Shown: positions 5-51,932, counted from the stretch's first letter. The stretch: 64,000 bases of DNA from Thermoleophilaceae bacterium (GCA_034664165.1 JAXDIE010000023.1:2777-66776); one strand, 5' to 3'. Notes: generated by a model not told the origin, from the sequence alone. Translations and numbers: made by a program.

Positions 5-1636
5 ATGCGCTGGTGGGGTTGGGGAACCGACGGCCACGACGCACCGCTGCCTCCCGCGGCGGACGCCCTGCTGGGCGAGGAGCTCGGCACCGCTCCCGGG
101 CGCCTGGTTCCAGCGCCGCTCGAGCGCGTAGCGCTCGAGGAGTCCCGGCTCGCCCCGCCCGCCCACGCGGAGCTGGCCGGCATCGTCGGCGACGACCACG
201 TTAGGACGGACAGGCTCTCCCGGGTGACACACGCGGGCGGGCGGAGCTACCCGGATCTGGTCCGCCTGCGCGCCGGCCAGGCGGAGTTCGCCCCCGATGC
301 CGTCGTGGAACCCGCCGACGGTGATGAGGTGGCCGGCCTGCTGGCCGCGTGCGCGCGCCTGGGCGTGGCCGTTGTGCCCTTTGGCGGCGGCACCAGCGTG
401 GTGGGTGGTGTCGAGGCTCTCCGCGGGCCGTTTGACTCGGTGGTCTCCGTCGACTTGCGCAGGCTCACCGGCGTCCTTTCGGCCGACCCCCACTCGCTGC
501 TTGCCACCATCGCCGCCGGCACCCTTGGGCCCGCTGCCGAGGCCGAGCTGGGCGCACGCGGCCTGACACTGGGGCACTTCCCGCAAAGCTTCGAGTTCTC
601 GACGGTGGGCGGTTGGGTGGCCACGCGCTCGGCCGGCCAGTCATCCACCGGCTACGGCCGCATCGACGAGCTCGTGGTAGCGATGAAGGTTGCCACGCCG
701 TCGGGCTGGGTCGAGTCGATCGCCGTGCCGGCCAGCGCCGCCGGGCCCGACCTGCGCGAGCTGCTGATCGGCTCGGAGGGCACCATGGGGATCATCACCG
801 AGGCCACCTTCAGGGTGCGGCCGGCACCACGGGAGCGCCGCTACGAGGCATGGTCCTTTCGCACATGGGAGGCCGGGGCCGATGCCCTGCGCGAGCTCGA
901 GCAGTCAGGCCATGCCCCCGACGTTGCCCGGCTCTCCGATGAGGACGAGACCCGGCTCTCCATGACGCTTTCGAGTGGCGTGGGCGCCAAGGCGCTCGCG
1001 CGCTACCTCGGCGCGCGCGGCCATGCCGATGGGTGCCTTGCGATCACGGGCTTCGAGGGCGATCCGGAGGAGATCGCCTACCGGCGCTACCGCGCCCGCT
1101 CGATCCTGCGCGGCCATGGTGCGCTGGGCTTGGGAACCGCCCCCGCCGAGAAATGGGTGCAGGGGCGATTCCACGGCCCTTACCTACGGGACGAGCTGCT
1201 GGCCCGCGGGATCATGGTCGACACCCTCGAGACGGCCACGACCTGGACCGGCGCGATGGGCCTCTACGAGGCGGTGCGATCGGCGATCCTTGGCGCGATC
1301 GGCGAGCGCGGCCATCGCGGGCGCGTGATGTGCCACATCTCGCACCTCTACCCCACTGGCTGCTCGCTCTACTTCACGTTCCTCACGCGCCAGGAACAGG
1401 GCACCGAGATGGAGCAGTGGCATGCGGTGAAGTCCGCAGCCGGCGATGCCATCGCGTCGGCCGGCGGCACCATCAGCCACCACCACGCCGTGGGGCGCGA
1501 CCATGCTCCATGGCTCGGCCGCGAGGTCGGGGAACTTGGCCTGGACCTGATCCGGGCAGCCAAGGCCACGCTGGACCCGGAGGGAGTAATGAACCCGGGC
1601 AAGCTGGTAGACGGGGCGCCGCTTCCCGGCGCCTGA
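5..1636 (+). CDS. FAD-linked oxidase, alkyl-DHAP-synthase/GlcD-like
   Basis: 543-aa ORF. N-terminal MRWWGWG is typical of AGPS-like flavoenzymes. FAD-binding segment VVPFGGGTSVVGG; C-terminal GGTISHHHAVGRDH. The start is 4 nt from the window edge, so upstream context is unseen. Confidence 0.8.
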   Translation: MRWWGWGTDGHDAPLPPAADALLGEELGTAPGRLVPAPLERVALEESRLAPPAHAELAGIVGDDHVRTDRLSRVTHAGGRSYPDLVRLRAGQAEFAPDAVVEPADGDEVAGLLAACARLGVAVVPFGGGTSVVGGVEALRGPFDSVVSVDLRRLTGVLSADPHSLLATIAAGTLGPAAEAELGARGLTLGHFPQSFEFSTVGGWVATRSAGQSSTGYGRIDELVVAMKVATPSGWVESIAVPASAAGPDLRELLIGSEGTMGIITEATFRVRPAPRERRYEAWSFRTWEAGADALRELEQSGHAPDVARLSDEDETRLSMTLSSGVGAKALARYLGARGHADGCLAITGFEGDPEEIAYRRYRARSILRGHGALGLGTAPAEKWVQGRFHGPYLRDELLARGIMVDTLETATTWTGAMGLYEAVRSAILGAIGERGHRGRVMCHISHLYPTGCSLYFTFLTRQEQGTEMEQWHAVKSAAGDAIASAGGTISHHHAVGRDHAPWLGREVGELGLDLIRAAKATLDPEGVMNPGKLVDGAPLPGA

Positions 1637-1672
1637 GAGAACCAGGACAGACACTCAAACGGAGGAGAACAA

Positions 1673-2089
1673 ATGGGACGCGAACAGGTCGACGTGACAC
1701 AGGAGTGGGCGGCGCCGGTCGAGAAGGTCTTCGACTACCTCGGCGAGCACGAGAACCTCAGCAAGGTCTTCGGCATCAAGGTCGAGCGGCTGCGGAGCGG
1801 CGATACGGACCGTAACGGCGTGGGCTCGGTTCGCAAGCTGGGCATCGGGCCGATCACCTTCGAGGAGACCGTGACGGACTACAAGGCCAACGAGCTCATC
1901 GAATACACGATCACCAAGGGCACGCCCCTGAAGGACCACCTGGGCACGATGCGCTTCAGCTCGACCCCGAGCGGCGGCAGCAGGCTCCACTACACGATCG
2001 CCATCGAAGGTCCGCCGATCATCACGACCCTGGTCCGGATGCAGCTCCAGCGCTCGCTGTCGAGCGCGCTGCCCAAGATCCCGGTCTGA
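1673..2089 (+). CDS. SRPBCC/START-like small protein
   Basis: 138-aa ORF with GGAGGAG RBS just upstream. Size and N-terminal pattern (W..PVEKVFDYL) resemble polyketide-cyclase/SRPBCC proteins. Family call by eye only. Confidence 0.55.
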   Translation: MGREQVDVTQEWAAPVEKVFDYLGEHENLSKVFGIKVERLRSGDTDRNGVGSVRKLGIGPITFEETVTDYKANELIEYTITKGTPLKDHLGTMRFSSTPSGGSRLHYTIAIEGPPIITTLVRMQLQRSLSSALPKIPV

Positions 2090-2449
2090 TCAGCGAACGT
2101 GCAGGGTGCCCTTCATCCTCGGATGGATGCTGCAGAAATAGCCGTATGTACCGCGCTTGAGGGCGCTCACGCCCGTCACGCTCGCGGACCCACCGAACGT
2201 GATGTCCTTGCTACGGAACACGGGGCGGTGCTTCTTGAGCTTGGTGGCCGTGACGTTGTGCGGCGCCAGATCGAAGTTCTGGAAGCTGAGGCCCCCGCCC
2301 CGCGAAATGGTCACGTTGGTGGTCGAATAGTTGCTGCCGGCGGAGCCGAGAGAAGCCAGAATGGTGCCGTTGGCGGCCAACGCCGGCGGGGCGAGCGCCG
2401 CCAGGGCCACAACGCCGATCATCAGGGGCGGGATCCGTCTCACAGCCAC
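2090..2449 (-). CDS. secreted type-1 (blue) copper protein, amicyanin/plastocyanin-like cupredoxin
   Basis: 119 aa with GTG start. Signal peptide MAVRRIPPLMIGVVALAALAPPALA. Copper ligand pattern: His in APHNV, then C-x2-H-x2-M in YFCSIHPRM. Confidence 0.8.
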   Translation of the reverse strand: MAVRRIPPLMIGVVALAALAPPALAANGTILASLGSAGSNYSTTNVTISRGGGLSFQNFDLAPHNVTATKLKKHRPVFRSKDITFGGSASVTGVSALKRGTYGYFCSIHPRMKGTLHVR

Positions 2450-43823: not shown

Positions 43824-45359
43824 TTAGACGGAACGTCCGCTGTCCTGCCAGTACTCGTCACGCAGGGCGCGCTTGAGCACCTTACCCACCGGGCTGCGAG
43901 GCAGCTCACGGACGATGACCGTCTTGGGGGTCTTGACCGGGCTGAGCCGCTCGCGGCAGTAGGCGATGATCTCGTCGGCGTCGACCTCCATGCCGCTCTT
44001 GGGCTCGACGACCGCGGTGACCGACTCGCCCCACTTCTCGTCCGGCAGGCCGATAACGGCACAGTCGTTGACCGACGGATGGCTCCAGATGACCTGCTCG
44101 ATCTCGCCTGGGTAGACGTTGAAGCCACCCGTGATCACCATGTCGCGCTTGCGGTCGACGATGTAGATGTAGCCGTCCTCGTCCTTCTGGCCGATGTCGT
44201 TGGTGCCGTGCCAGCCGTTGCGGTCGGCGGCGGCCGTCTCCTCGGGGTTCTTGTAGTAGCCCTTCATCACCATCGAGCCGCGCACAACGATCTCGCCGCG
44301 CTCGCCCGGGGGCATGAAGTTGCCGTCGTCATCCATGATCTCGACGCGCGCCACGAGCGATGGCTTGCCGCAGCTGGCCAGGCGGCCTTCCAGCCCGGGG
44401 GTCTCGAGGCACTCCATGTGCTCCTTGGGCCCGAAGAAGGTGCAGATCATGGGCGCCTCGGCCTGGCCGAAGGTCTGCGTCATGACGGGGCCGAAGACTT
44501 CGATGGCCTCCTTGAGCTTCTCGGTGGACATGGGGGCGGCGGCGTAGATGAAGTGCTGGAGCGAGCTGTAGTCGCGGTCGCGCACCGTCGGGTCGTCGAG
44601 CAGCGAGTAGATCGCGGTGGGCGGCAGGAACATCCGCGTGACCTTGTGCTTCTCGATGGAGTCGAGGATCTCGACCGGCTTGACATTCTTATGCACGATC
44701 GTGGTGCCGCCGGCGGCGAAGACGGGGAAGGAGATCGGCCCGGCCGCGTGGGTCATGGGCGCGGCCATGAGCTGGACGGGGGGAGCCGGCTCGGGCATGT
44801 GGGCGGCGAAGGCCAGGTTCATGAACTCAGCGACCCGGTGGGTGAGCATCACGGCCTTGGACTTGCCCGTGGTGCCGCCGCTGCCGAACATGATGGCCAC
44901 GGAGTCGGGGCTGTGGGCGGGCATGCCAACCTCGGTGCCCTCGGGCGCCATCCAGGTGTCCAGCTCGGCGATCGGGACCAGCTCGCGGACCACGTCGACG
45001 GCGTCGTCCAGCTGGCGCGCGAACTCCTCGAGCTCGGGGTGGAAGAACAGCACCTCGGTGTCGGAGAGCTCCAGCGTGTGCGCCAGGTCCTCGAGCGTGC
45101 CGCGGGTATTCATCGGGACCCACGACGCGTTGAGCCTCAGCGCACCGAGTACGCAGCAAAAAGCGATCGGGTCGTTCGGGGAGAAGACCGCGACCTTGGT
45201 CTCCTCTTCGACGCCCAGATCCTTGAGCTTGGCCGCAATCCGATGCGACATCGCCGACATCTCGGCGTAGGTGTACTCGCGGTCTTCGCCGTACATGACC
45301 ATGCAGGCCCGGTCGGGGTCGAGAAGAACGCCACGATCGAAGGTCTCTATTAGTTGCAT
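43824..45359 (-). CDS. acyl-CoA synthetase (AMP-forming, FadD-like)
   Basis: 511 aa. AMP-binding motif FGSGGTTGKSKAV. Later GWHGTNDIG and ITGGFNVYPGEIE. Confidence 0.9.
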   Translation of the reverse strand: MQLIETFDRGVLLDPDRACMVMYGEDREYTYAEMSAMSHRIAAKLKDLGVEEETKVAVFSPNDPIAFCCVLGALRLNASWVPMNTRGTLEDLAHTLELSDTEVLFFHPELEEFARQLDDAVDVVRELVPIAELDTWMAPEGTEVGMPAHSPDSVAIMFGSGGTTGKSKAVMLTHRVAEFMNLAFAAHMPEPAPPVQLMAAPMTHAAGPISFPVFAAGGTTIVHKNVKPVEILDSIEKHKVTRMFLPPTAIYSLLDDPTVRDRDYSSLQHFIYAAAPMSTEKLKEAIEVFGPVMTQTFGQAEAPMICTFFGPKEHMECLETPGLEGRLASCGKPSLVARVEIMDDDGNFMPPGERGEIVVRGSMVMKGYYKNPEETAAADRNGWHGTNDIGQKDEDGYIYIVDRKRDMVITGGFNVYPGEIEQVIWSHPSVNDCAVIGLPDEKWGESVTAVVEPKSGMEVDADEIIAYCRERLSPVKTPKTVIVRELPRSPVGKVLKRALRDEYWQDSGRSV

Positions 45360-45452: not shown

Positions 45453-46589
45453 TCAGCGGTCGGTGCCCCGGGCGCGGAGGTAGAGGGACGCGGCCTCTAC
45501 GCGGTTTGCCGCTCCCAGCTTGCGCAGGATCCGCTTGACGTGGGACTTGGTGGTGCCCTCGGTGATGACAAGCTTGTCGGCAATCTGGTTGTTGGTGGCT
45601 CCCTGGGCCACCAGCGCCAGGACCTCGCGCTCGCGCCGGGTGAGCTGCGCCTCGATCGCCGTCTCCACATCCCCGAAGAGCGCCGCTGCCGACCGCGCCG
45701 CGCCCGCTTCGACCGGCCCGGCGACCAGTTCGACCTGGGCCGCCAGCTGAGCAGACACCACCGAGTCCGCCTGTGCGATGAGACTCTTGAGCTCCTGGCC
45801 CTGGGAGCGCAGCCTGTCCAGCAGCTGCATGCGCTCTACAGCGAACCCGAGCCCCTCGGCGAAGGCCCAGATGGCATCGCGGTCGAAGCCGTCGACGGCA
45901 TCGATCACGCCGGGATATCGCAGGCCCTTCTCCCCGTGCAGGAACCCGATCACCCGGCCCTCGGGCATGATCGGCGCCGCGACGTAGGCGTGCGAGCCGT
46001 AAGCCCTGACGAGCGGCTTGTACGTGGAGGGGTGGTTCTGTGCGTCGTGCACGACCATCGGCCGGCGGCGGCGGATCATCTCCGACTCCAGGATCTGCTC
46101 GCGGAGCGGCGCGGGGTTGGCCCGGCTCAGCTCCAGCAGCTCCGCCGCGCGCTCAGGGTCACTGGCCACGAAGAAGCCCTCGCAGATCATCATCGCGTCC
46201 TCCACCCGATAGATGGCAACGCGATCGAAATCGCAGGCCCATGCAACCTCGGCAGGGGCCCTCCTGATCATCGCCTCACTGGCGCCGATGCCACGGAGGC
46301 GCTCGAGGGCCTCGTGAATCCGCCCGAACACCAGCAGCCTACGGCCCATGCGCTCCTCCACGAGCTCCGAGCGCACCTGGCTCAGCTCGACCAGGGCATC
46401 CCAACGCTCGCGGTCCTCGCCGGTAAGGTCCTCCTGGCGCGCGGCCAGGGCCACATCCAGGGCGTCGAGCAGGGCCTCGGCACCGCCCTTCTCGGGCACG
46501 GTGGCGCCACAGCGCTCCAGTACCTCGGCGGCGCGGGCCACCAGCGAAGCAGAGGCCGGAGCCTCCGCCGCGGAAGATCTCTGGCTCAC
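45453..46589 (-). CDS. GAF-domain LuxR-family transcriptional regulator (paralog 3)
   Basis: GAF-like block ESEMIRRRRPMVVHD...APIMPEGRVIGFLHGE. LuxR HTH LTRREREVLALVAQGATNNQIADKLVITEGTTKSHVKRILRKL. The in-frame GTG at 46589 overlaps the upstream hydrolase stop (GTGA). The track ORF extends to 47945. Confidence 0.78.
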   Translation of the reverse strand: MSQRSSAAEAPASASLVARAAEVLERCGATVPEKGGAEALLDALDVALAARQEDLTGEDRERWDALVELSQVRSELVEERMGRRLLVFGRIHEALERLRGIGASEAMIRRAPAEVAWACDFDRVAIYRVEDAMMICEGFFVASDPERAAELLELSRANPAPLREQILESEMIRRRRPMVVHDAQNHPSTYKPLVRAYGSHAYVAAPIMPEGRVIGFLHGEKGLRYPGVIDAVDGFDRDAIWAFAEGLGFAVERMQLLDRLRSQGQELKSLIAQADSVVSAQLAAQVELVAGPVEAGAARSAAALFGDVETAIEAQLTRREREVLALVAQGATNNQIADKLVITEGTTKSHVKRILRKLGAANRVEAASLYLRARGTDR

Positions 46590-47647
46590 GTGCGCCAGCC
46601 TATTTGCCGAGCAGGTTCGGCCGGAGCGTCCAGCGGGGGCGCCTGGTCGGCGGGCACGTGCGCCGCCAGGTCGGCATGCGGGCCGTCCTTCTGCCACGAG
46701 TGCATGCCCAGGCGCTTCATGGACAGGTACTTGGCGCGGCCGTGCGCATTGCCAATCACCCAGACGCCGTGGACGGAGACCGGCAGGAGCGAGTTCCAGA
46801 AGTACGGCGGGGTGGGGTCGCGCGGCTGCGGGTCGTCCTCCATCGTCACGTCCTGGCAGATGTAGCCCTCGCCGTCCTCGTAGCTCATGCGCTCGAGCAC
46901 GCGGCCGTCGGCATCGCAGATCGCCGTCTCCCCCACGCAGATGGATGGCCATGGGACCCCGGGCATGAGCATCGTGGCCATCGTGAAGTCGCCGACGTGC
47001 GAAGGGTGCACCGCGGGCACGCCGAGCATCCGGGCCATGCGCGGCGGGGTCTCGCGCGCGTACTGGAGCAACGCCTGGTGGTCGCGATCCCAGAACCACT
47101 TCTTCGTGACGCGCCATTTCGGAAAGGAGGGAAAGTGCATTCCGCCCGCCAGGAGCTGGACCTTGCCCAACATCCGGTGCACCGTGCGGGTACGGCCCCA
47201 CTCGAAGCCGTTGGCGCAGCCGATGACCCCGAGCGATGTGTTCATCACCCCGTCGTCGGTGCCGGGCGAGTAGTAGTTGTTCTCCCAGAAGCTCGGCTGA
47301 TCCTTGTCGTGCAGGTGGATGGCGCCGTCGGGCTCGCAGAGCGCGTAGGTGCCGCGCGTGTCCTGGCCGCGCACGGCTATGAAGCCGCCGCCCACCAGGC
47401 AGCCGTACTCGCGCGCCATGTTTCGCAGCAGGGCCAGCGGCTCGCCGATCAGCGGCCGGGCAACCCTGCGCATGCGCCTGTCGTAGGCGTTGGGTGAGGT
47501 CATGGCCTCGGGCAGCCAGATGGCGTCGGGCTCGTGCTCCTTTGCCGCCTGGCGGATCAGGTCCTCGAGGTGGCGGAGGTTCTTGTCGACCTCCCCTATC
47601 TGCACGCGAGGCTGGATGGCGACCATCCGACGGACCGCGTCGGGCAT
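46586..47647 (-). CDS. carbon-nitrogen hydrolase (nitrilase superfamily), long form
   Basis: 353 aa. E in WLPEAMT, K in HLHDKDQPSFWE, Cys in LGVIGCANGFEW. The start overlaps the upstream ACAD stop by 1 nt. Confidence 0.75.
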   Translation of the reverse strand: MPDAVRRMVAIQPRVQIGEVDKNLRHLEDLIRQAAKEHEPDAIWLPEAMTSPNAYDRRMRRVARPLIGEPLALLRNMAREYGCLVGGGFIAVRGQDTRGTYALCEPDGAIHLHDKDQPSFWENNYYSPGTDDGVMNTSLGVIGCANGFEWGRTRTVHRMLGKVQLLAGGMHFPSFPKWRVTKKWFWDRDHQALLQYARETPPRMARMLGVPAVHPSHVGDFTMATMLMPGVPWPSICVGETAICDADGRVLERMSYEDGEGYICQDVTMEDDPQPRDPTPPYFWNSLLPVSVHGVWVIGNAHGRAKYLSMKRLGMHSWQKDGPHADLAAHVPADQAPPLDAPAEPARQIGWRT

Positions 47648-49320
47648 CAGCGGTCCGGGCGGGCGCGCTCGAGGATTGCGTCGAGGTCGGCGCCCGCCGG
47701 GAGGTCGCCGAAGGCGCCCCCGGCGCCCTCGCCCAGGCGGGCTGCGCAGAAGGCGTCCGAAACCGCCGCGGTCGAATGGCGGACGAGCAGCGAGGCCTGC
47801 AGGGTCCGGGCCAGGCGGCCGCAGAGACCGCGGGCGGCCGCTTCGCCGACGGGATCACCGGCCAGCTCGGAGCGGATGCCCGAGATCGCGGCGTCCAGCC
47901 TGGCGTTGGCGCCGGCGGCCAACTCGATCTCGGACAGCAGCGCATCCAGCGAGGCCGGTGAGCGGCGCCAGGCGCGCAGCACGTCCAGCGCCTGCACGTT
48001 GCCCGAGCCCTCCCAGACGGACATCAGCGGCGCCTCCCTATAGGCGCGCGCGAGGCGCGACTCCTCGATGTATCCAAAGCCGCCCTGGCATTCGAGCGCC
48101 TCCGCGAGGTGCTGCGGCGCGCGCTTGCAGGTCCAGTACTTCAGCACCGGGGCGGCCAGGCGCCTGAACATCTCCGCGTCGCCATCGCCCGCATGCGCCG
48201 TCTCGTTGGCGCGGGCGAGTCGCATGGCGCCGGCCGTGGCTGCCTCGGACTCCAAGGCCAGGTCCGCGAGCACCGCCTTCATCGCCGGCTGATCGATCAG
48301 CGCCGCGCCGAAGGCCTGGCGGTGGATCGCCCAGTGGATGGCCTCGGCAGTGCCCAGCCGCATGACGGCCGTGGAGCCCAGGACGCAGTCGTGGCGGGTG
48401 CCCCCGATCATGGCCATGATGGCCCGCACGCCGTGGCCGGGCTCGCCCACCAGGCGCCCGCGGGCATTGGTCAGGACCACCTCGGCGGTGGGGTTGGAGC
48501 GGTTGCCCAGCTTGGGCTTCAGGCGGTCGAGGTGGAAGCCGTTGGGGCGACCGTCCTCGTCGAGGCGCGGGACCAGGGCGAGCGACATGCCCTGGTCCGT
48601 CTGCGCCAGTGCGAAGAAGGCATCGGACTGGACCGCGGAGACGAACCACTTGCCACCGCTCACCAGGACCTCGCCTTCGTCCCCTCCCGGAGCCGGCACC
48701 GCAACGGTGCCCGAGCCCGCCACGTCGGAGCCGCCGCTGCGCTCGGTGAGCGCCATGCCGATCAGCGCGCCGTTCTTCTGAGAGGCCGGAAGCTCGCGCG
48801 GGTCATAGACGCCCGAGGACACGAGCGGCTCCCAGTCGGCGGCCAGCCCCGGTTCCAGCCGCAGCGCGGGCACGCAGGAGTAGGTCATTGCCAGCGGGCA
48901 CGTGATGCCCGCCTCGATCTGGGCGACAAGCAGAAACCGCGCGGCACGCGCCACGTGGGCGCCCGGTCGCGGGTCGGCCCACGGGGCTCCGGCCACGCCG
49001 TTCTCGACGGCCAGCCCCAGAAGCTCGTGCCACGAGGGATCGAAGGAGATCGAATCGACCCGGGCTCCCGCCCGGTCGTAGCTCACGTGCTCGGGCGTGC
49101 GCTCGTTGGCAGCAAACCCGCGCTCGATCCAGTCGAGCCGGCCGACGATCTCTCCGAACTCGCGGACGCCGTCCTCGCGGTCGGCTCCGCCCTCGCGGCG
49201 CAGGCCCTCGAGGAGTGCGAGGTCGCCATCAAGCACGTTGTCTCCCGACCGCGCCGGTGGAAGGGGTGCCGCGACTGCGGCCTGAAACGAATCGCCGGAA
49301 ATGGCGGGGGCTATGGCCAT
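47647..49320 (-). CDS. AidB-like acyl-CoA dehydrogenase
   Basis: 557 aa from MAIAPAISG. LTERSGGSDV, KWFVSA, and a C-terminal extension as in AidB-type ACADs. The track ORF extends to 49581. Confidence 0.82.
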   Translation of the reverse strand: MAIAPAISGDSFQAAVAAPLPPARSGDNVLDGDLALLEGLRREGGADREDGVREFGEIVGRLDWIERGFAANERTPEHVSYDRAGARVDSISFDPSWHELLGLAVENGVAGAPWADPRPGAHVARAARFLLVAQIEAGITCPLAMTYSCVPALRLEPGLAADWEPLVSSGVYDPRELPASQKNGALIGMALTERSGGSDVAGSGTVAVPAPGGDEGEVLVSGGKWFVSAVQSDAFFALAQTDQGMSLALVPRLDEDGRPNGFHLDRLKPKLGNRSNPTAEVVLTNARGRLVGEPGHGVRAIMAMIGGTRHDCVLGSTAVMRLGTAEAIHWAIHRQAFGAALIDQPAMKAVLADLALESEAATAGAMRLARANETAHAGDGDAEMFRRLAAPVLKYWTCKRAPQHLAEALECQGGFGYIEESRLARAYREAPLMSVWEGSGNVQALDVLRAWRRSPASLDALLSEIELAAGANARLDAAISGIRSELAGDPVGEAAARGLCGRLARTLQASLLVRHSTAAVSDAFCAARLGEGAGGAFGDLPAGADLDAILERARPDR

Positions 49321-49371
49321 CGGGCGATCCAACCACCTTCCGGGGGCCTTTTCCAGCGACTTTCTACCCGT

Positions 49372-49391
49372 GGGGGGTGCAATTGCCCCCC
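49372..49391. promoter_or_regulatory. 20-bp GC-clamped palindrome GGGGGGTGCAATTGCCCCCC in divergent promoter region
   Basis: Read directly. A perfect GCAATTGC core is flanked by G and C runs, in the 114-bp region between divergent operons. Confidence 0.35.
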
Positions 49392-49434
49392 TTTGCGGGA
49401 TGGCCTGACCCCCCGGGGCGCGTAGGTTGTCGGC

Positions 49435-50892
49435 ATGACCAATTCCAGAGAGCAGTTCGACGTGGTGGTTGTCGGAGCCCGCTGTGCCGGCTCGGCCGCG
49501 GCCATCACCTTCGCCAACGGGGGCCGCAAGGTGCTGGCCATCGACCGGTCGGCGTTCCCCTCGGACACGCTTTCGACGCACGCCAACTTCCCCTCCTCGG
49601 TGGCCGAGATGCAGCGGCTCGGGGCCCTTCCGCGCATCCGGAAGGCGGGCGCGCCCGAGTGCCGCGAGGCCTATCTGTCCGCTGACGGCATCGCGCTTGT
49701 CACGCCCTGGGACCCGGTCGACGGAATCGACTATGGACTCTGCAATCCCAGGGAGGCGTTCGACGAAGCGCTGGTGGAGACGGCTCGCGAAGCCGGTGCG
49801 GAGGTCCGCGAGAAGACATCGCTGGTCGACGTGCTCTGGCGCGCCGGGCGTGCCTCAGGTGTCCGGGTCAAGGGCCCGGAGGGCGAATACGAGGTCGACT
49901 GCAAGCTCGTGGTAGGCGCCGACGGCCGGCGCTCCATGACCGCCTACAGAGTCGGCGCCGACGTGCCCTATCGCGGCTCCAAGAACGGTCGCGGCCTGGC
50001 CTTCTGGTACTGCGACGACCCGATGGTGGGCACGGAGTGGAGGAACCGTCTGTGCCAGTTCCGGGCCGGCGTGACCCACACCCTGCTCTTCCCCTGCCCG
50101 GACGACCGGATGCTGGTCCTCTTCATGGGCCCCGCCGAGGAGATCCCCGACTTCCGCCGCGACCCGATGGGGATGTGGGATCGCATGATGGCCGCGAACC
50201 CGGTGACCGCCGAACGCTGCGCGGGCGCCAAGAACCACTCGAAGCTGCGCTCCACGGGCTCCACGTCGGCCTTCTTCCGCCGCTCCAGCGGCCCCGGCTG
50301 GGCGCTGGCCGGCGACTCCGGCCATTTCAAGGATCCGATCATCGGCCAGGGCATGCGCGACGCCATGCGCTTCGGCCGGATCCTGGCCGAGCGTGCCGGG
50401 CCCGTGATCGACGACCCCGCCCGCCTGGACGGGGAGCTGCTCGCCACGGAGCGGCAGCGCGACGAGGAGTGCATGGCGTCCTACCACTGGGGCAACCGCG
50501 AGTCACGGATCTTCGCCCCGAGCGACTTGGTCAAGACCACCCTGGAGACATGGTCTCGAAAGGGAGAGCCGGGGGTGGCCCAGATGTTCGACAGGACAAA
50601 GCCCCCGCACCACGTGCTGAACCCCATCGTCGGGGTGAAGATGGCGACCCGTGCGGCGCTCAAGCGAGGAACCGACCGCAAGGCCCTCCTGGCGGAGATC
50701 CGCGAGGAGGCCAGGATCGACCTCGACATCTGGCGCGAGGAGATTCGCAAGCCTTTCCGGCCGACGCGGGTCTGGGCAAGCGAGCGCCCCGGATTCGACT
50801 GGCCGAGCGCCGCTCCTGCGCAGCCAAAGGAGGCAGCGGTGGCGCCCGACTCGGACACGCTCGAGAGGTCGTTGGAAGCCGTCGGCCCATGA
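49435..50892 (+). CDS. FAD-dependent oxidoreductase/monooxygenase (geranylgeranyl-reductase/UbiH-like fold)
   Basis: 485 aa. N-terminal DVVVVGARCAGSAAA dinucleotide-binding motif. GDSGHFKDPIIGQGMRDA motif. Confidence 0.75.
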   Translation: MTNSREQFDVVVVGARCAGSAAAITFANGGRKVLAIDRSAFPSDTLSTHANFPSSVAEMQRLGALPRIRKAGAPECREAYLSADGIALVTPWDPVDGIDYGLCNPREAFDEALVETAREAGAEVREKTSLVDVLWRAGRASGVRVKGPEGEYEVDCKLVVGADGRRSMTAYRVGADVPYRGSKNGRGLAFWYCDDPMVGTEWRNRLCQFRAGVTHTLLFPCPDDRMLVLFMGPAEEIPDFRRDPMGMWDRMMAANPVTAERCAGAKNHSKLRSTGSTSAFFRRSSGPGWALAGDSGHFKDPIIGQGMRDAMRFGRILAERAGPVIDDPARLDGELLATERQRDEECMASYHWGNRESRIFAPSDLVKTTLETWSRKGEPGVAQMFDRTKPPHHVLNPIVGVKMATRAALKRGTDRKALLAEIREEARIDLDIWREEIRKPFRPTRVWASERPGFDWPSAAPAQPKEAAVAPDSDTLERSLEAVGP

Positions 50893-51932
50893 GCGCCCCC
50901 GGCGAGACGCGGAAGGTCGTGGCCATCCAGCTGGCCGTGAAGCTGGGTGAGATCTCCGCCAACCTGGCCCACATCGAGGACATCGTGGGCCAGGCGGTGC
51001 GCGAGCACTCGCCGGACATGGTCTTCCTGCCCGAGGTGTCGACCACGCCGAACATCAGCCACCGGGCCATGAGGTCGTGCCACGTGCCCGTGGACGGCGA
51101 GCCGCTGGCCCTCTACCGCAAGCTTGCCCGCGAGCACGGGTGCATCGTCGGCGCGGGTGCCCTGACGGTCCGCGGCAAGGACGCGCGCAACACCTATTAC
51201 ATCTGCGAGCCGGGCGGCGCGACCCATCTGCACGACAAGGATCAGCCGTCCATGTGGGAGAACAACTACTACGGGCCGGGCAAGGACGAGGGCGTGGTGG
51301 AGCTCTCCACCGGCGGAGCGCTCGGCGTTCCCAACGGCTTCGAGTGGATGCGGTCACGTACTGCGGCCCGTCTGCGGGGCCGGGTACGCCTGGTCACCGG
51401 CGGGATGTGCTTTCCCTCCTATCCCAAGTGGGCGCTGACCCGCCCCTACTTCTGGAGGCGGGAGCACACGACGATGCTCCAGCTGTGCCGTGAGTCCCCG
51501 GGCAGGCTGGCGCGGGTGGTCGGCGCCCCTGCGGTGCATTCGGCCCACGTGGGCGACATCACCATGGAGACGCCCATGGCGGCCGGGATCGACTGGCCGA
51601 CGATCATGACGGGGGAGACGATCATCACCGATCGCCATGGCGTGATCCTGGAGCGGCTGGCCTACGAGGACGGCGAGGGCTACATCGGCACCGAAGTCGA
51701 GTGGCGCGACCCCGAGCCCCTGGATCCCGTCCCGAACAGCTTCTGGATGACCTCGCTGCCCTTCAGCACCCAGGCGGTCTGGCACATCTGCAACAACCAG
51801 GGGCGCGCCTCCTACCTGGCCAGGAAGGCCCGGGACGGGCACGCCTGGCAACACGAGCCCTACCACGGGCTGGACCTGCCCGACTCGATTCCGGGAGACC
51901 CCGTGGCGGAGGGCGCAACCGCCCAGAGTTGA
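50889..51932 (+). CDS. carbon-nitrogen hydrolase paralog lacking the nucleophile Cys
   Basis: 347 aa from MSAPGETRK (ATGA overlap with the upstream stop). Alignable end to end with 46586-47647, but reads LGVPNGFEW where the paralog reads IGCANGFEW. The track ORF starts at 50037. Confidence 0.72.
   Translation: MSAPGETRKVVAIQLAVKLGEISANLAHIEDIVGQAVREHSPDMVFLPEVSTTPNISHRAMRSCHVPVDGEPLALYRKLAREHGCIVGAGALTVRGKDARNTYYICEPGGATHLHDKDQPSMWENNYYGPGKDEGVVELSTGGALGVPNGFEWMRSRTAARLRGRVRLVTGGMCFPSYPKWALTRPYFWRREHTTMLQLCRESPGRLARVVGAPAVHSAHVGDITMETPMAAGIDWPTIMTGETIITDRHGVILERLAYEDGEGYIGTEVEWRDPEPLDPVPNSFWMTSLPFSTQAVWHICNNQGRASYLARKARDGHAWQHEPYHGLDLPDSIPGDPVAEGATAQS

Follow-up and report, generated by a model that had tools for sequence, protein, structure and literature searches.

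To our knowledge, a Glu-Lys-(Glu)-Cys site that works through a covalent thioacyl intermediate is common to all branches of the nitrilase superfamily that have been characterised. We analysed a 64,000-nucleotide stretch of DNA from a Thermoleophilaceae bacterium (GCA_034664165.1 JAXDIE010000023.1:2777-66776), referred to below as the window, in which two paralogous carbon-nitrogen hydrolase (CNH) genes, encoding CNH-A (P0001, copy 1) and CNH-B (P0002, copy 2), lie on the two arms of a divergent locus. The closest solved relatives, the PH0642 amidase of Pyrococcus horikoshii (PDB 1j31 and 6ypa) and the N-carbamoylputrescine amidase of Medicago (5h8i), have the same alpha-beta-beta-alpha fold as the window proteins (Foldseek E 1e-13 to 3e-16, TM 0.7-0.77). 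The catalytic Glu, Lys, and second Glu of PH0642 align with residues of the window proteins, and the strand-elbow-helix architecture is held in common with canonical amidases. The window proteins differ from these enzymes in having Gly at the elbow, which resembles the engineered inactive variants C146A and C158S, in reading HDKD rather than YRK at the Lys motif, and in having a C-terminal extension of ~70 residues and paired flavoenzyme genes. It is very probable that both are without the canonical nucleophile and are members of a flavoenzyme-coupled clade, here called Gly-type, in which the nucleophile column is Gly.

A Cys-type sister group (HDKD...CWE...R..T), which includes a protein of the same genome, P0272, belongs to the same subfamily (hhalign probability 100, E 4.5e-80) and shares with the window proteins the HDKD, WEN, and R..T motifs and the C-terminal extension with its conserved Trp and Tyr. 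It differs in having the canonical Cys and in the absence of an upstream flavoenzyme from four sampled members, and no NCBIfam equivalog was found for it. The acyl-CoA dehydrogenase (ACAD) encoded upstream of CNH-A is of the AidB type and has an AidB_N domain; its described counterparts, Escherichia coli AidB (3djl) and Mycobacterium smegmatis FadE8, dehydrogenate isovaleryl-CoA only weakly, and their physiological substrate is not established (PMC7432924), so that this partner does not yet reveal the chemistry of the CNH protein. The FAD_binding_3 oxidoreductase (P0273) encoded upstream of CNH-B may be compared with LodA/LodB, GoxA/GoxB, and QhpC/QhpG, where a flavoprotein of the same broad class is encoded beside its partner; the partner here, however, has a nitrilase fold and is not LodA-like, and P0273 scores far beneath the cut-offs of those families. 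The gene order is reversed relative to the lodAB operon.

The nucleophile column in CNH-A and CNH-B

CNH-A and CNH-B are 53% identical over 335 residues (BLASTP E 4e-132), a likeness far beyond chance that marks them as real paralogs. Both exceed the PF00795 (CN_hydrolase) gathering score of 23.2 bits, CNH-A with 42.4 bits and CNH-B with 39.3 bits in a match that covers only its N-terminal half. AlphaFold2 (AF2) models of high pLDDT (95.2 for CNH-A, 94.5 for CNH-B) predict a four-layer sandwich fold, and at least 213 PDB entries were matched by Foldseek at E<=0.001; the best 50 listed are all nitrilase-superfamily enzymes, headed by N-carbamoylputrescine amidase and the PH0642 amidase. None of the NCBIfam equivalogs claims either protein, the ESM Atlas returned generic CN-hydrolase clusters only, and homologs in the databases are named only 'carbon-nitrogen hydrolase family protein' or 'predicted amidohydrolase'.

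Three catalytic positions other than the nucleophile were compared with PH0642 and with two sets of homologs, 75 genomic and 118 from databases. The catalytic Glu of the LPE motif, after strand 2 (E47 in CNH-A, E49 in CNH-B), aligns to E42 of PH0642 and is invariant (75/75 and 118/118). The catalytic Lys (K115/K117) aligns to the Lys of YRK and is likewise invariant in both sets, and the second Glu, seven residues past the Lys (E122/E124), aligns to the Glu of YRE and is Glu in 75/75 genomic and 116/118 database homologs, the other two having Asp. E149 of CNH-A and E152 of CNH-B are also kept. A first-pass annotation of the window, made from its sequence, is borne out to this point: the two reading frames that it described exist (Table 1), they align along their whole length and share the motif blocks that it quoted and the C-terminal extension, the first protein scores as a CN hydrolase, and the Glu and Lys positions are kept in both.

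The position of the nucleophile was located by four alignments and two structural models. In phmmer comparisons with solved structures, C146 of PH0642 (GVMICFDW) falls opposite the Gly of NGFEW in both window proteins, and the Cys of P0272 (AVCWEL) aligns to the same C146. A MAFFT alignment of representatives at 50% identity shows distant members with ...A.CWE..R..T where the window proteins read ...ANGFEW.R.RT. The hhalign comparison of the Gly-type and Cys-type profiles is ungapped from the HDKD motif to the elbow and sets G147 of CNH-A opposite Cys and C144 opposite Ala. In the AF2 model of CNH-A a strand spans 140-144 and, after two coil residues, a helix starts at G147; in that of CNH-B the strand covers 144-146 and the helix starts at G150. 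The nucleophile column (C-[WFY]-[ED] motif) is thus Gly, G147 and G150, in the two window proteins, and it is Gly in all 75 genomic and 118 database homologs. By this placement both copies are without the nucleophile, and neither can form the thioester or thioimidate intermediate of canonical amidases and nitrilases; what sets the two apart here is only a strand residue, three positions upstream of the elbow.

It is this strand residue that the first-pass annotation had taken for the triad cysteine. In a pairwise alignment, as it reported, C144 of CNH-A in LGVIGCANGFEW stands opposite V147 of CNH-B in ALGVPNGFEW, but the true column lies three residues downstream, at the Gly of NGFEW. The + strand copy, CNH-B, is accordingly without a nucleophile cysteine, alignment placing G150 at its elbow, and is not a canonical thiol amidase or nitrilase; the claim that only this copy lacks it does not stand. 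Position 144 is variable, with Cys in 24, Leu in 21, Val in 13, Ile in eight, Met in five, Thr in three, and Ser in one of the 75 genomic homologs, and with Val in 44, Cys in 37, Leu in 26, and Ile in eight of the 118 database homologs. Cys is found there in just 16 of 35 CNH-A orthologs, and it is present in near relatives of CNH-B such as P0003 (75% identity). There is no invariant Cys column anywhere in the family alignment. C144 of CNH-A is, on this distribution, an incidental strand residue, and the variability of the position rules it out as a relocated nucleophile.

Cysteines do occur at two other positions near the elbow. Position 146, which is Asn in both window proteins, is Cys in 15/75 genes, mostly from early-branching FAD-coupled lineages. 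The motif ACG[WF]EW is frequent in such lineages (L061, L063, L065, L067-L069, L073-L075, L077, L078, and others), and the Cys one residue before the nucleophile column could be left over from the nucleophile or mark its shift by one residue. Residue 171 (H171 in CNH-A) is His in 35/35 AidB-coupled copies, and its equivalent is Cys in 28/29 FAD-coupled copies, including C174 of CNH-B (GGMCFPS), so the reported absence of a nearby cysteine from CNH-B calls for a qualification. Many Cys-type relatives also carry Cys at this position (GGSCWW), so the residue probably belongs to the ancestral pocket and did not arise as a new nucleophile.

The Gly clade and its flavoenzyme partners

With the motif columns taken out, a maximum-likelihood tree of 96 sequences divides 56 Gly forms from 40 Cys forms (one of them Ser) by a single branch with a Shimodaira-Hasegawa approximate likelihood ratio test (SH-aLRT) support of 100, and the Cys/Gly trait requires the minimum possible number of changes. 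The proposed test, of whether Cys-less copies group together, has an outcome other than the expected one: the entire family that surrounds the two window copies forms a single Gly clade. On this tree the change from Cys to Gly (CWE to G[F/W]EW) happened once, in an old, widespread, and mainly actinobacterial clade. Within the crown of the Gly clade, E47, H113, D114, K115, D116, W121, E122, G143, G147, E149, R152, and T155 are kept in 75/75 genes, at identities to CNH-A as low as ~48%. The same positions are invariant in the Cys-type relatives, the Cys being the sole catalytic residue changed, and these counts place the Gly-clade pocket under strong constraint.

To describe the genomic setting, loci were scanned in one genome per species, giving 68 loci with 100 Gly-type genes. 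Directly downstream of an FAD-oxidoreductase homolog lie 51/100 of these genes, and a further 34/100 lie downstream of an AidB-like ACAD (85/100 in total). The remainder are 10 genes without a detected partner, four at contig ends, and one that follows another CNH gene. The 10 without a detected partner come in part from frameshifted assemblies, and three of the loci, L012, L014, and L019, are truly without an FAD gene. Around the four Cys-type relatives the genes are of unrelated kinds and include those for a TetR regulator, a MAPEG protein, PQQ-repeat proteins, and heparinase-like and PLP enzymes; none of the four has a flavoenzyme upstream (0/4). Among them, P0272 (L004:1471-2397, minus strand, contig C124; PF00795 88 bits) adjoins a heparinase II/III-like gene and a PLP-dependent enzyme gene. 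Gly-type genes are functionally tied to flavoenzymes.

The full module, in which CNH-B and the FAD oxidoreductase face the AidB-like ACAD, CNH-A, and a GAF-LuxR regulator, was found in roughly 30 loci, from Solirubrobacterales (Conexibacter, Paraconexibacter, Patulibacter, Baekduia), Sporichthyaceae, and Aeromicrobium; the AidB arm is present in Mycobacterium. A homolog of the GAF-LuxR regulator is encoded in 38/68 loci, mostly those with the AidB arm. Clustering of flanking open reading frames (ORFs) across the 68 loci gave no further conserved neighbour in more than 11 loci, shadow ORFs aside. Besides CNH-A and CNH-B, the genome of the window encodes one more Gly-type paralog, P0271 (SGWEW, with Ser at position -1; L003:59-3964, contig C68), which is coupled through an ATGA overlap to a second FAD_binding_3 gene and is followed by genes for an enoyl-CoA hydratase and a TetR/EthR-like regulator. 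A Solirubrobacteraceae metagenome-assembled genome (MAG) has two tandem Gly-type CNH genes (GCMNGWEW and GCANGFEW) behind an AidB-like ACAD (L045:3042-4948).

With the tree rooted on the Cys types, FAD coupling is found in every early Gly lineage; the AidB-coupled copies, unpaired or edge genes aside, make up a single derived clade (SH-aLRT 91). This clade groups with the CNH-B-type clade (SH-aLRT 99), and both lie within a clade of 52 sequences with support of 100. The pattern indicates that the window genes descend from an old duplication, after which one copy, CNH-A, switched its flavoenzyme partner. By this rooting the ancestral partner is the FAD_binding_3 oxidoreductase of ~485 aa, and the derived clade became coupled to the AidB-like ACAD and the GAF-LuxR regulator after the duplication.

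Ligand processing, ligand binding, and other explanations

We consider it somewhat probable, from sequence conservation and gene context, that the Gly-type proteins bind and probably transform a small C-N or acyl compound of the partner flavoenzyme without a covalent thiol step. The ligand would be a substrate or a product of that flavoenzyme, and non-thiol processing could, for example, use a water molecule activated by Glu and Lys in the space vacated by the change from Cys to Gly. Residue 171, His with AidB and Cys with the FAD oxidoreductase, may tune the pocket to the chemistry of the partner; residues ~24-27 after the nucleophile line the substrate pocket in carbamoylase and aliphatic-amidase structures, and residue 171 would do the same here. 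The frozen pocket speaks for a ligand site that still works and against a pseudoenzyme in decay. CoA-related genes recur near Gly-type genes (the ACAD, the acyl-CoA ligase of the window, the enoyl-CoA hydratase beside P0271, and an AMP-binding ligase in Mycobacterium), which makes a thioester substrate, for which no covalent catalysis is required, plausible. That the proteins catalyse independently of Cys, as opposed to only binding, is proposed tentatively and with less than even confidence. A more specific version, which we think improbable, is that the Gly clade is an active nitrilase offshoot in which the elbow, the Glu-Lys-Glu residues, and residue 171 form a new site on the partner's substrate or product, possibly in a complex; the reaction there would be carried out by either a nucleophile at a new place or an activated water. 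Were this true, the flavoenzyme and the nitrilase-fold protein would make up a two-component system with new chemistry, which could give a lead to the long-sought class of physiological substrate of AidB-type enzymes. A complex prediction for the FAD oxidoreductase with CNH-B gave a score of 0.00, which is no answer and was counted neither for nor against.

Several observations weigh against processing of a partner's ligand by the Gly-type proteins. Some deep Gly subclades (P0134, P0145, P0170, P0182) are without Lys or Glu residues as well in the MAFFT alignment, a pattern consistent with catalysis having been lost by at least some lineages of the clade. In L012, L014, and L019, which are three related MAGs, the CNH-B gene (GVPNGFEW; ~1200-2250, minus strand) and the AidB arm diverge directly from each other without an FAD gene in between, so the FAD partner can be lost with CNH-B kept and the pairing is not absolute. 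Gly at the elbow could equally mean a binding-only protein, by analogy with solved nitrilase-superfamily enzymes whose Cys-to-Ala or Cys-to-Ser variants are inactive substrate traps (the PDB entry titles give 6ypa as C146A with bound glutaramide and 5h8k as C158S). The Gly-type proteins might then be pseudoenzymes with a role as non-catalytic subunits, as modules for substrate binding or delivery, or in regulating the upstream flavoenzyme, with the pocket kept only to bind a ligand. The loss of the nucleophile from every member, the further losses in deep subclades, the substrate still bound by a Cys-to-Ala variant of a related amidase, and the tight coupling of the genes to two unrelated flavoenzymes all agree with such a role. 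Pseudoenzymes usually let leftover catalytic residues drift, however, whereas Glu-Lys-Glu, HDKD, E149, R152, and T155 are 100% invariant in the 75 genes and match the invariant positions of the Cys-type relatives, and we regard binding alone as rather unlikely.

Two further explanations fare worse. The cofactor route supposes that the FAD enzyme oxidises Trp or Cys residues of the pocket (W121, W150, C174) to a protein-derived cofactor that replaces the lost Cys, by analogy with LodB, GoxB, and QhpG, which make quinone cofactors in the proteins they are paired with. Invariant Trp residues do flank the former nucleophile (GFEW, WEN), C174 is conserved in the FAD-coupled copies, the gene pair is near-obligate, and P0273 has weak NCBIfam matches to QhpG (55.2 bits, cut-off 240), LodB (39.5 bits, cut-off 400), and GoxB (39 bits, cut-off 400). 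These scores are all far under threshold, however, and generic flavoprotein families match better; moreover, the partner of the AidB-coupled paralog is a dehydrogenase, not an oxygenase, and that paralog has His rather than Cys at 171, which leaves this explanation highly improbable. Least credible of all is the model of the first-pass annotation, in which copy 1 would be an active Glu-Lys-Cys hydrolase acting through C144 and copy 2 an inactive scaffold, perhaps in a hetero-oligomer. A Cys does stand opposite Val close to the elbow in the pairwise alignment, and the strand GVIGC resembles GVMIC of PH0642 if a three-residue insertion is allowed; against this, all four alignments put the nucleophile at G147 without a gap, AF2 has C144 within the strand and the helix N-terminus at G147, and the position is free to vary, being Cys in fewer than half of the copy 1 orthologs and in near relatives of copy 2. 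The proposed contrast between a catalytic and a non-catalytic copy therefore falls away, and processing of a flavoenzyme-linked ligand without a thiol remains the explanation that we prefer.

The five-gene module and what it means

The window carries the complete divergent five-gene module (Table 1). The stop codon of the ACAD gene and the start codon of the CNH-A gene share one base (TGATG, 47645-47649), and the stop of the FAD-oxidoreductase gene overlaps the start of the CNH-B gene (ATGA, 50889-50892), in agreement with the earlier statement that each copy is translationally coupled to a flavoenzyme gene. The TGA stop of the CNH-A gene also overlaps an in-frame GTG (GTGA, 46586-46589) that is a possible start for the GAF-LuxR regulator, so the ACAD, CNH-A, and the regulator may be translationally chained.

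Table 1. Features of the window, in window coordinates
Feature	Position	Strand	Basis or remark
CNH-A (P0001), nitrilase-fold protein, 353 aa	46586-47647	-	PF00795 score, alignments, AF2 model
CNH-B (P0002), paralog of CNH-A, 347 aa	50889-51932	+	PF00795 score, alignments, AF2 model
AidB-like ACAD, 557 aa from ATG at 49320	47647-49320	-	AidB_N and ACAD domains
FAD_binding_3 oxidoreductase (P0273), 485 aa	49435-50892	+	Domain and profile matches
GAF and LuxR/GerE regulator, downstream of CNH-A	45453-46589	-	Possible GTG start at 46589
Divergent intergenic region, 114 bp, between ACAD start and FAD-oxidoreductase start	49321-49434	none	
Acyl-CoA ligase	43824-45359		
CNH-A G147 codon	47207-47209		
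CNH-A C144 codon	47216-47218		
CNH-A H171 codon	47135-47137		
CNH-B G150 codon	51336-51338		
CNH-B V147 codon	51327-51329		
CNH-B C174 codon	51408-51410		

The divergent promoter contains an imperfect palindrome, clamped by G6 and C6, around GCAATTGC (49372-49391). It was rejected as a conserved operator, the CAATTG core being missing from 24 equivalent intergenic regions of other genomes. The closest relative (L055) has a different palindrome, clamped by G5 and C5, at a similar place in the intergenic region.

The ACAD of the module matches E. coli AidB at E 1e-107 and the Brucella protein 5ez3 at E 1e-116. The best matches of P0273 are to the geranylgeranyl-reductase superfamily and to halogenase-like flavoproteins, and it is related also to group A monooxygenase families. 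In several Solirubrobacterales the pair of FAD-oxidoreductase and Gly-type CNH genes occupies the usual actinobacterial folE slot, in the order hpt-ftsH-[pair]-folP-folB-(acyl-CoA thioesterase)-folK (L009:4563-7041 and L052:2545-5023; also L053, L054, L042, and L043). FolE (PF01227) is missing from three of four genomes with this arrangement and from the genome of the window, and FolE2/GCYH-IB (PF02649) is encoded in all five; with FolE2 present elsewhere in each genome, a non-orthologous displacement of FolE by the pair is unneeded and was set aside. The placement hints, weakly, at a possible link with the metabolism of pterins or folate.

By fold and profile the window proteins belong to the nitrilase superfamily, yet by alignment the defining catalytic feature of that superfamily is missing from them, and the annotation 'carbon-nitrogen hydrolase / predicted amidohydrolase' is probably wrong as a statement of mechanism. 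A literature search, which left subscription journals outside its reach, found nothing relevant on a natural Cys-less or pseudoenzyme clade of the nitrilase superfamily and no paper on the pairing of AidB with a carbon-nitrogen hydrolase. CNH-A and CNH-B are not an active/inactive pair of paralogs; both are specialised members of a single family without the nucleophile, set in a conserved module of five genes. A whole clade that has lost its nucleophile and is tied to flavoenzymes holds no less interest than one dead paralog. The near-obligate coupling to two different flavoenzymes offers an experimental handle, the real substrate of AidB-type enzymes having been unclear for decades, and this large, conserved clade represents either a rare natural case of new chemistry on the nitrilase fold or a family of dedicated ligand-binding partners.

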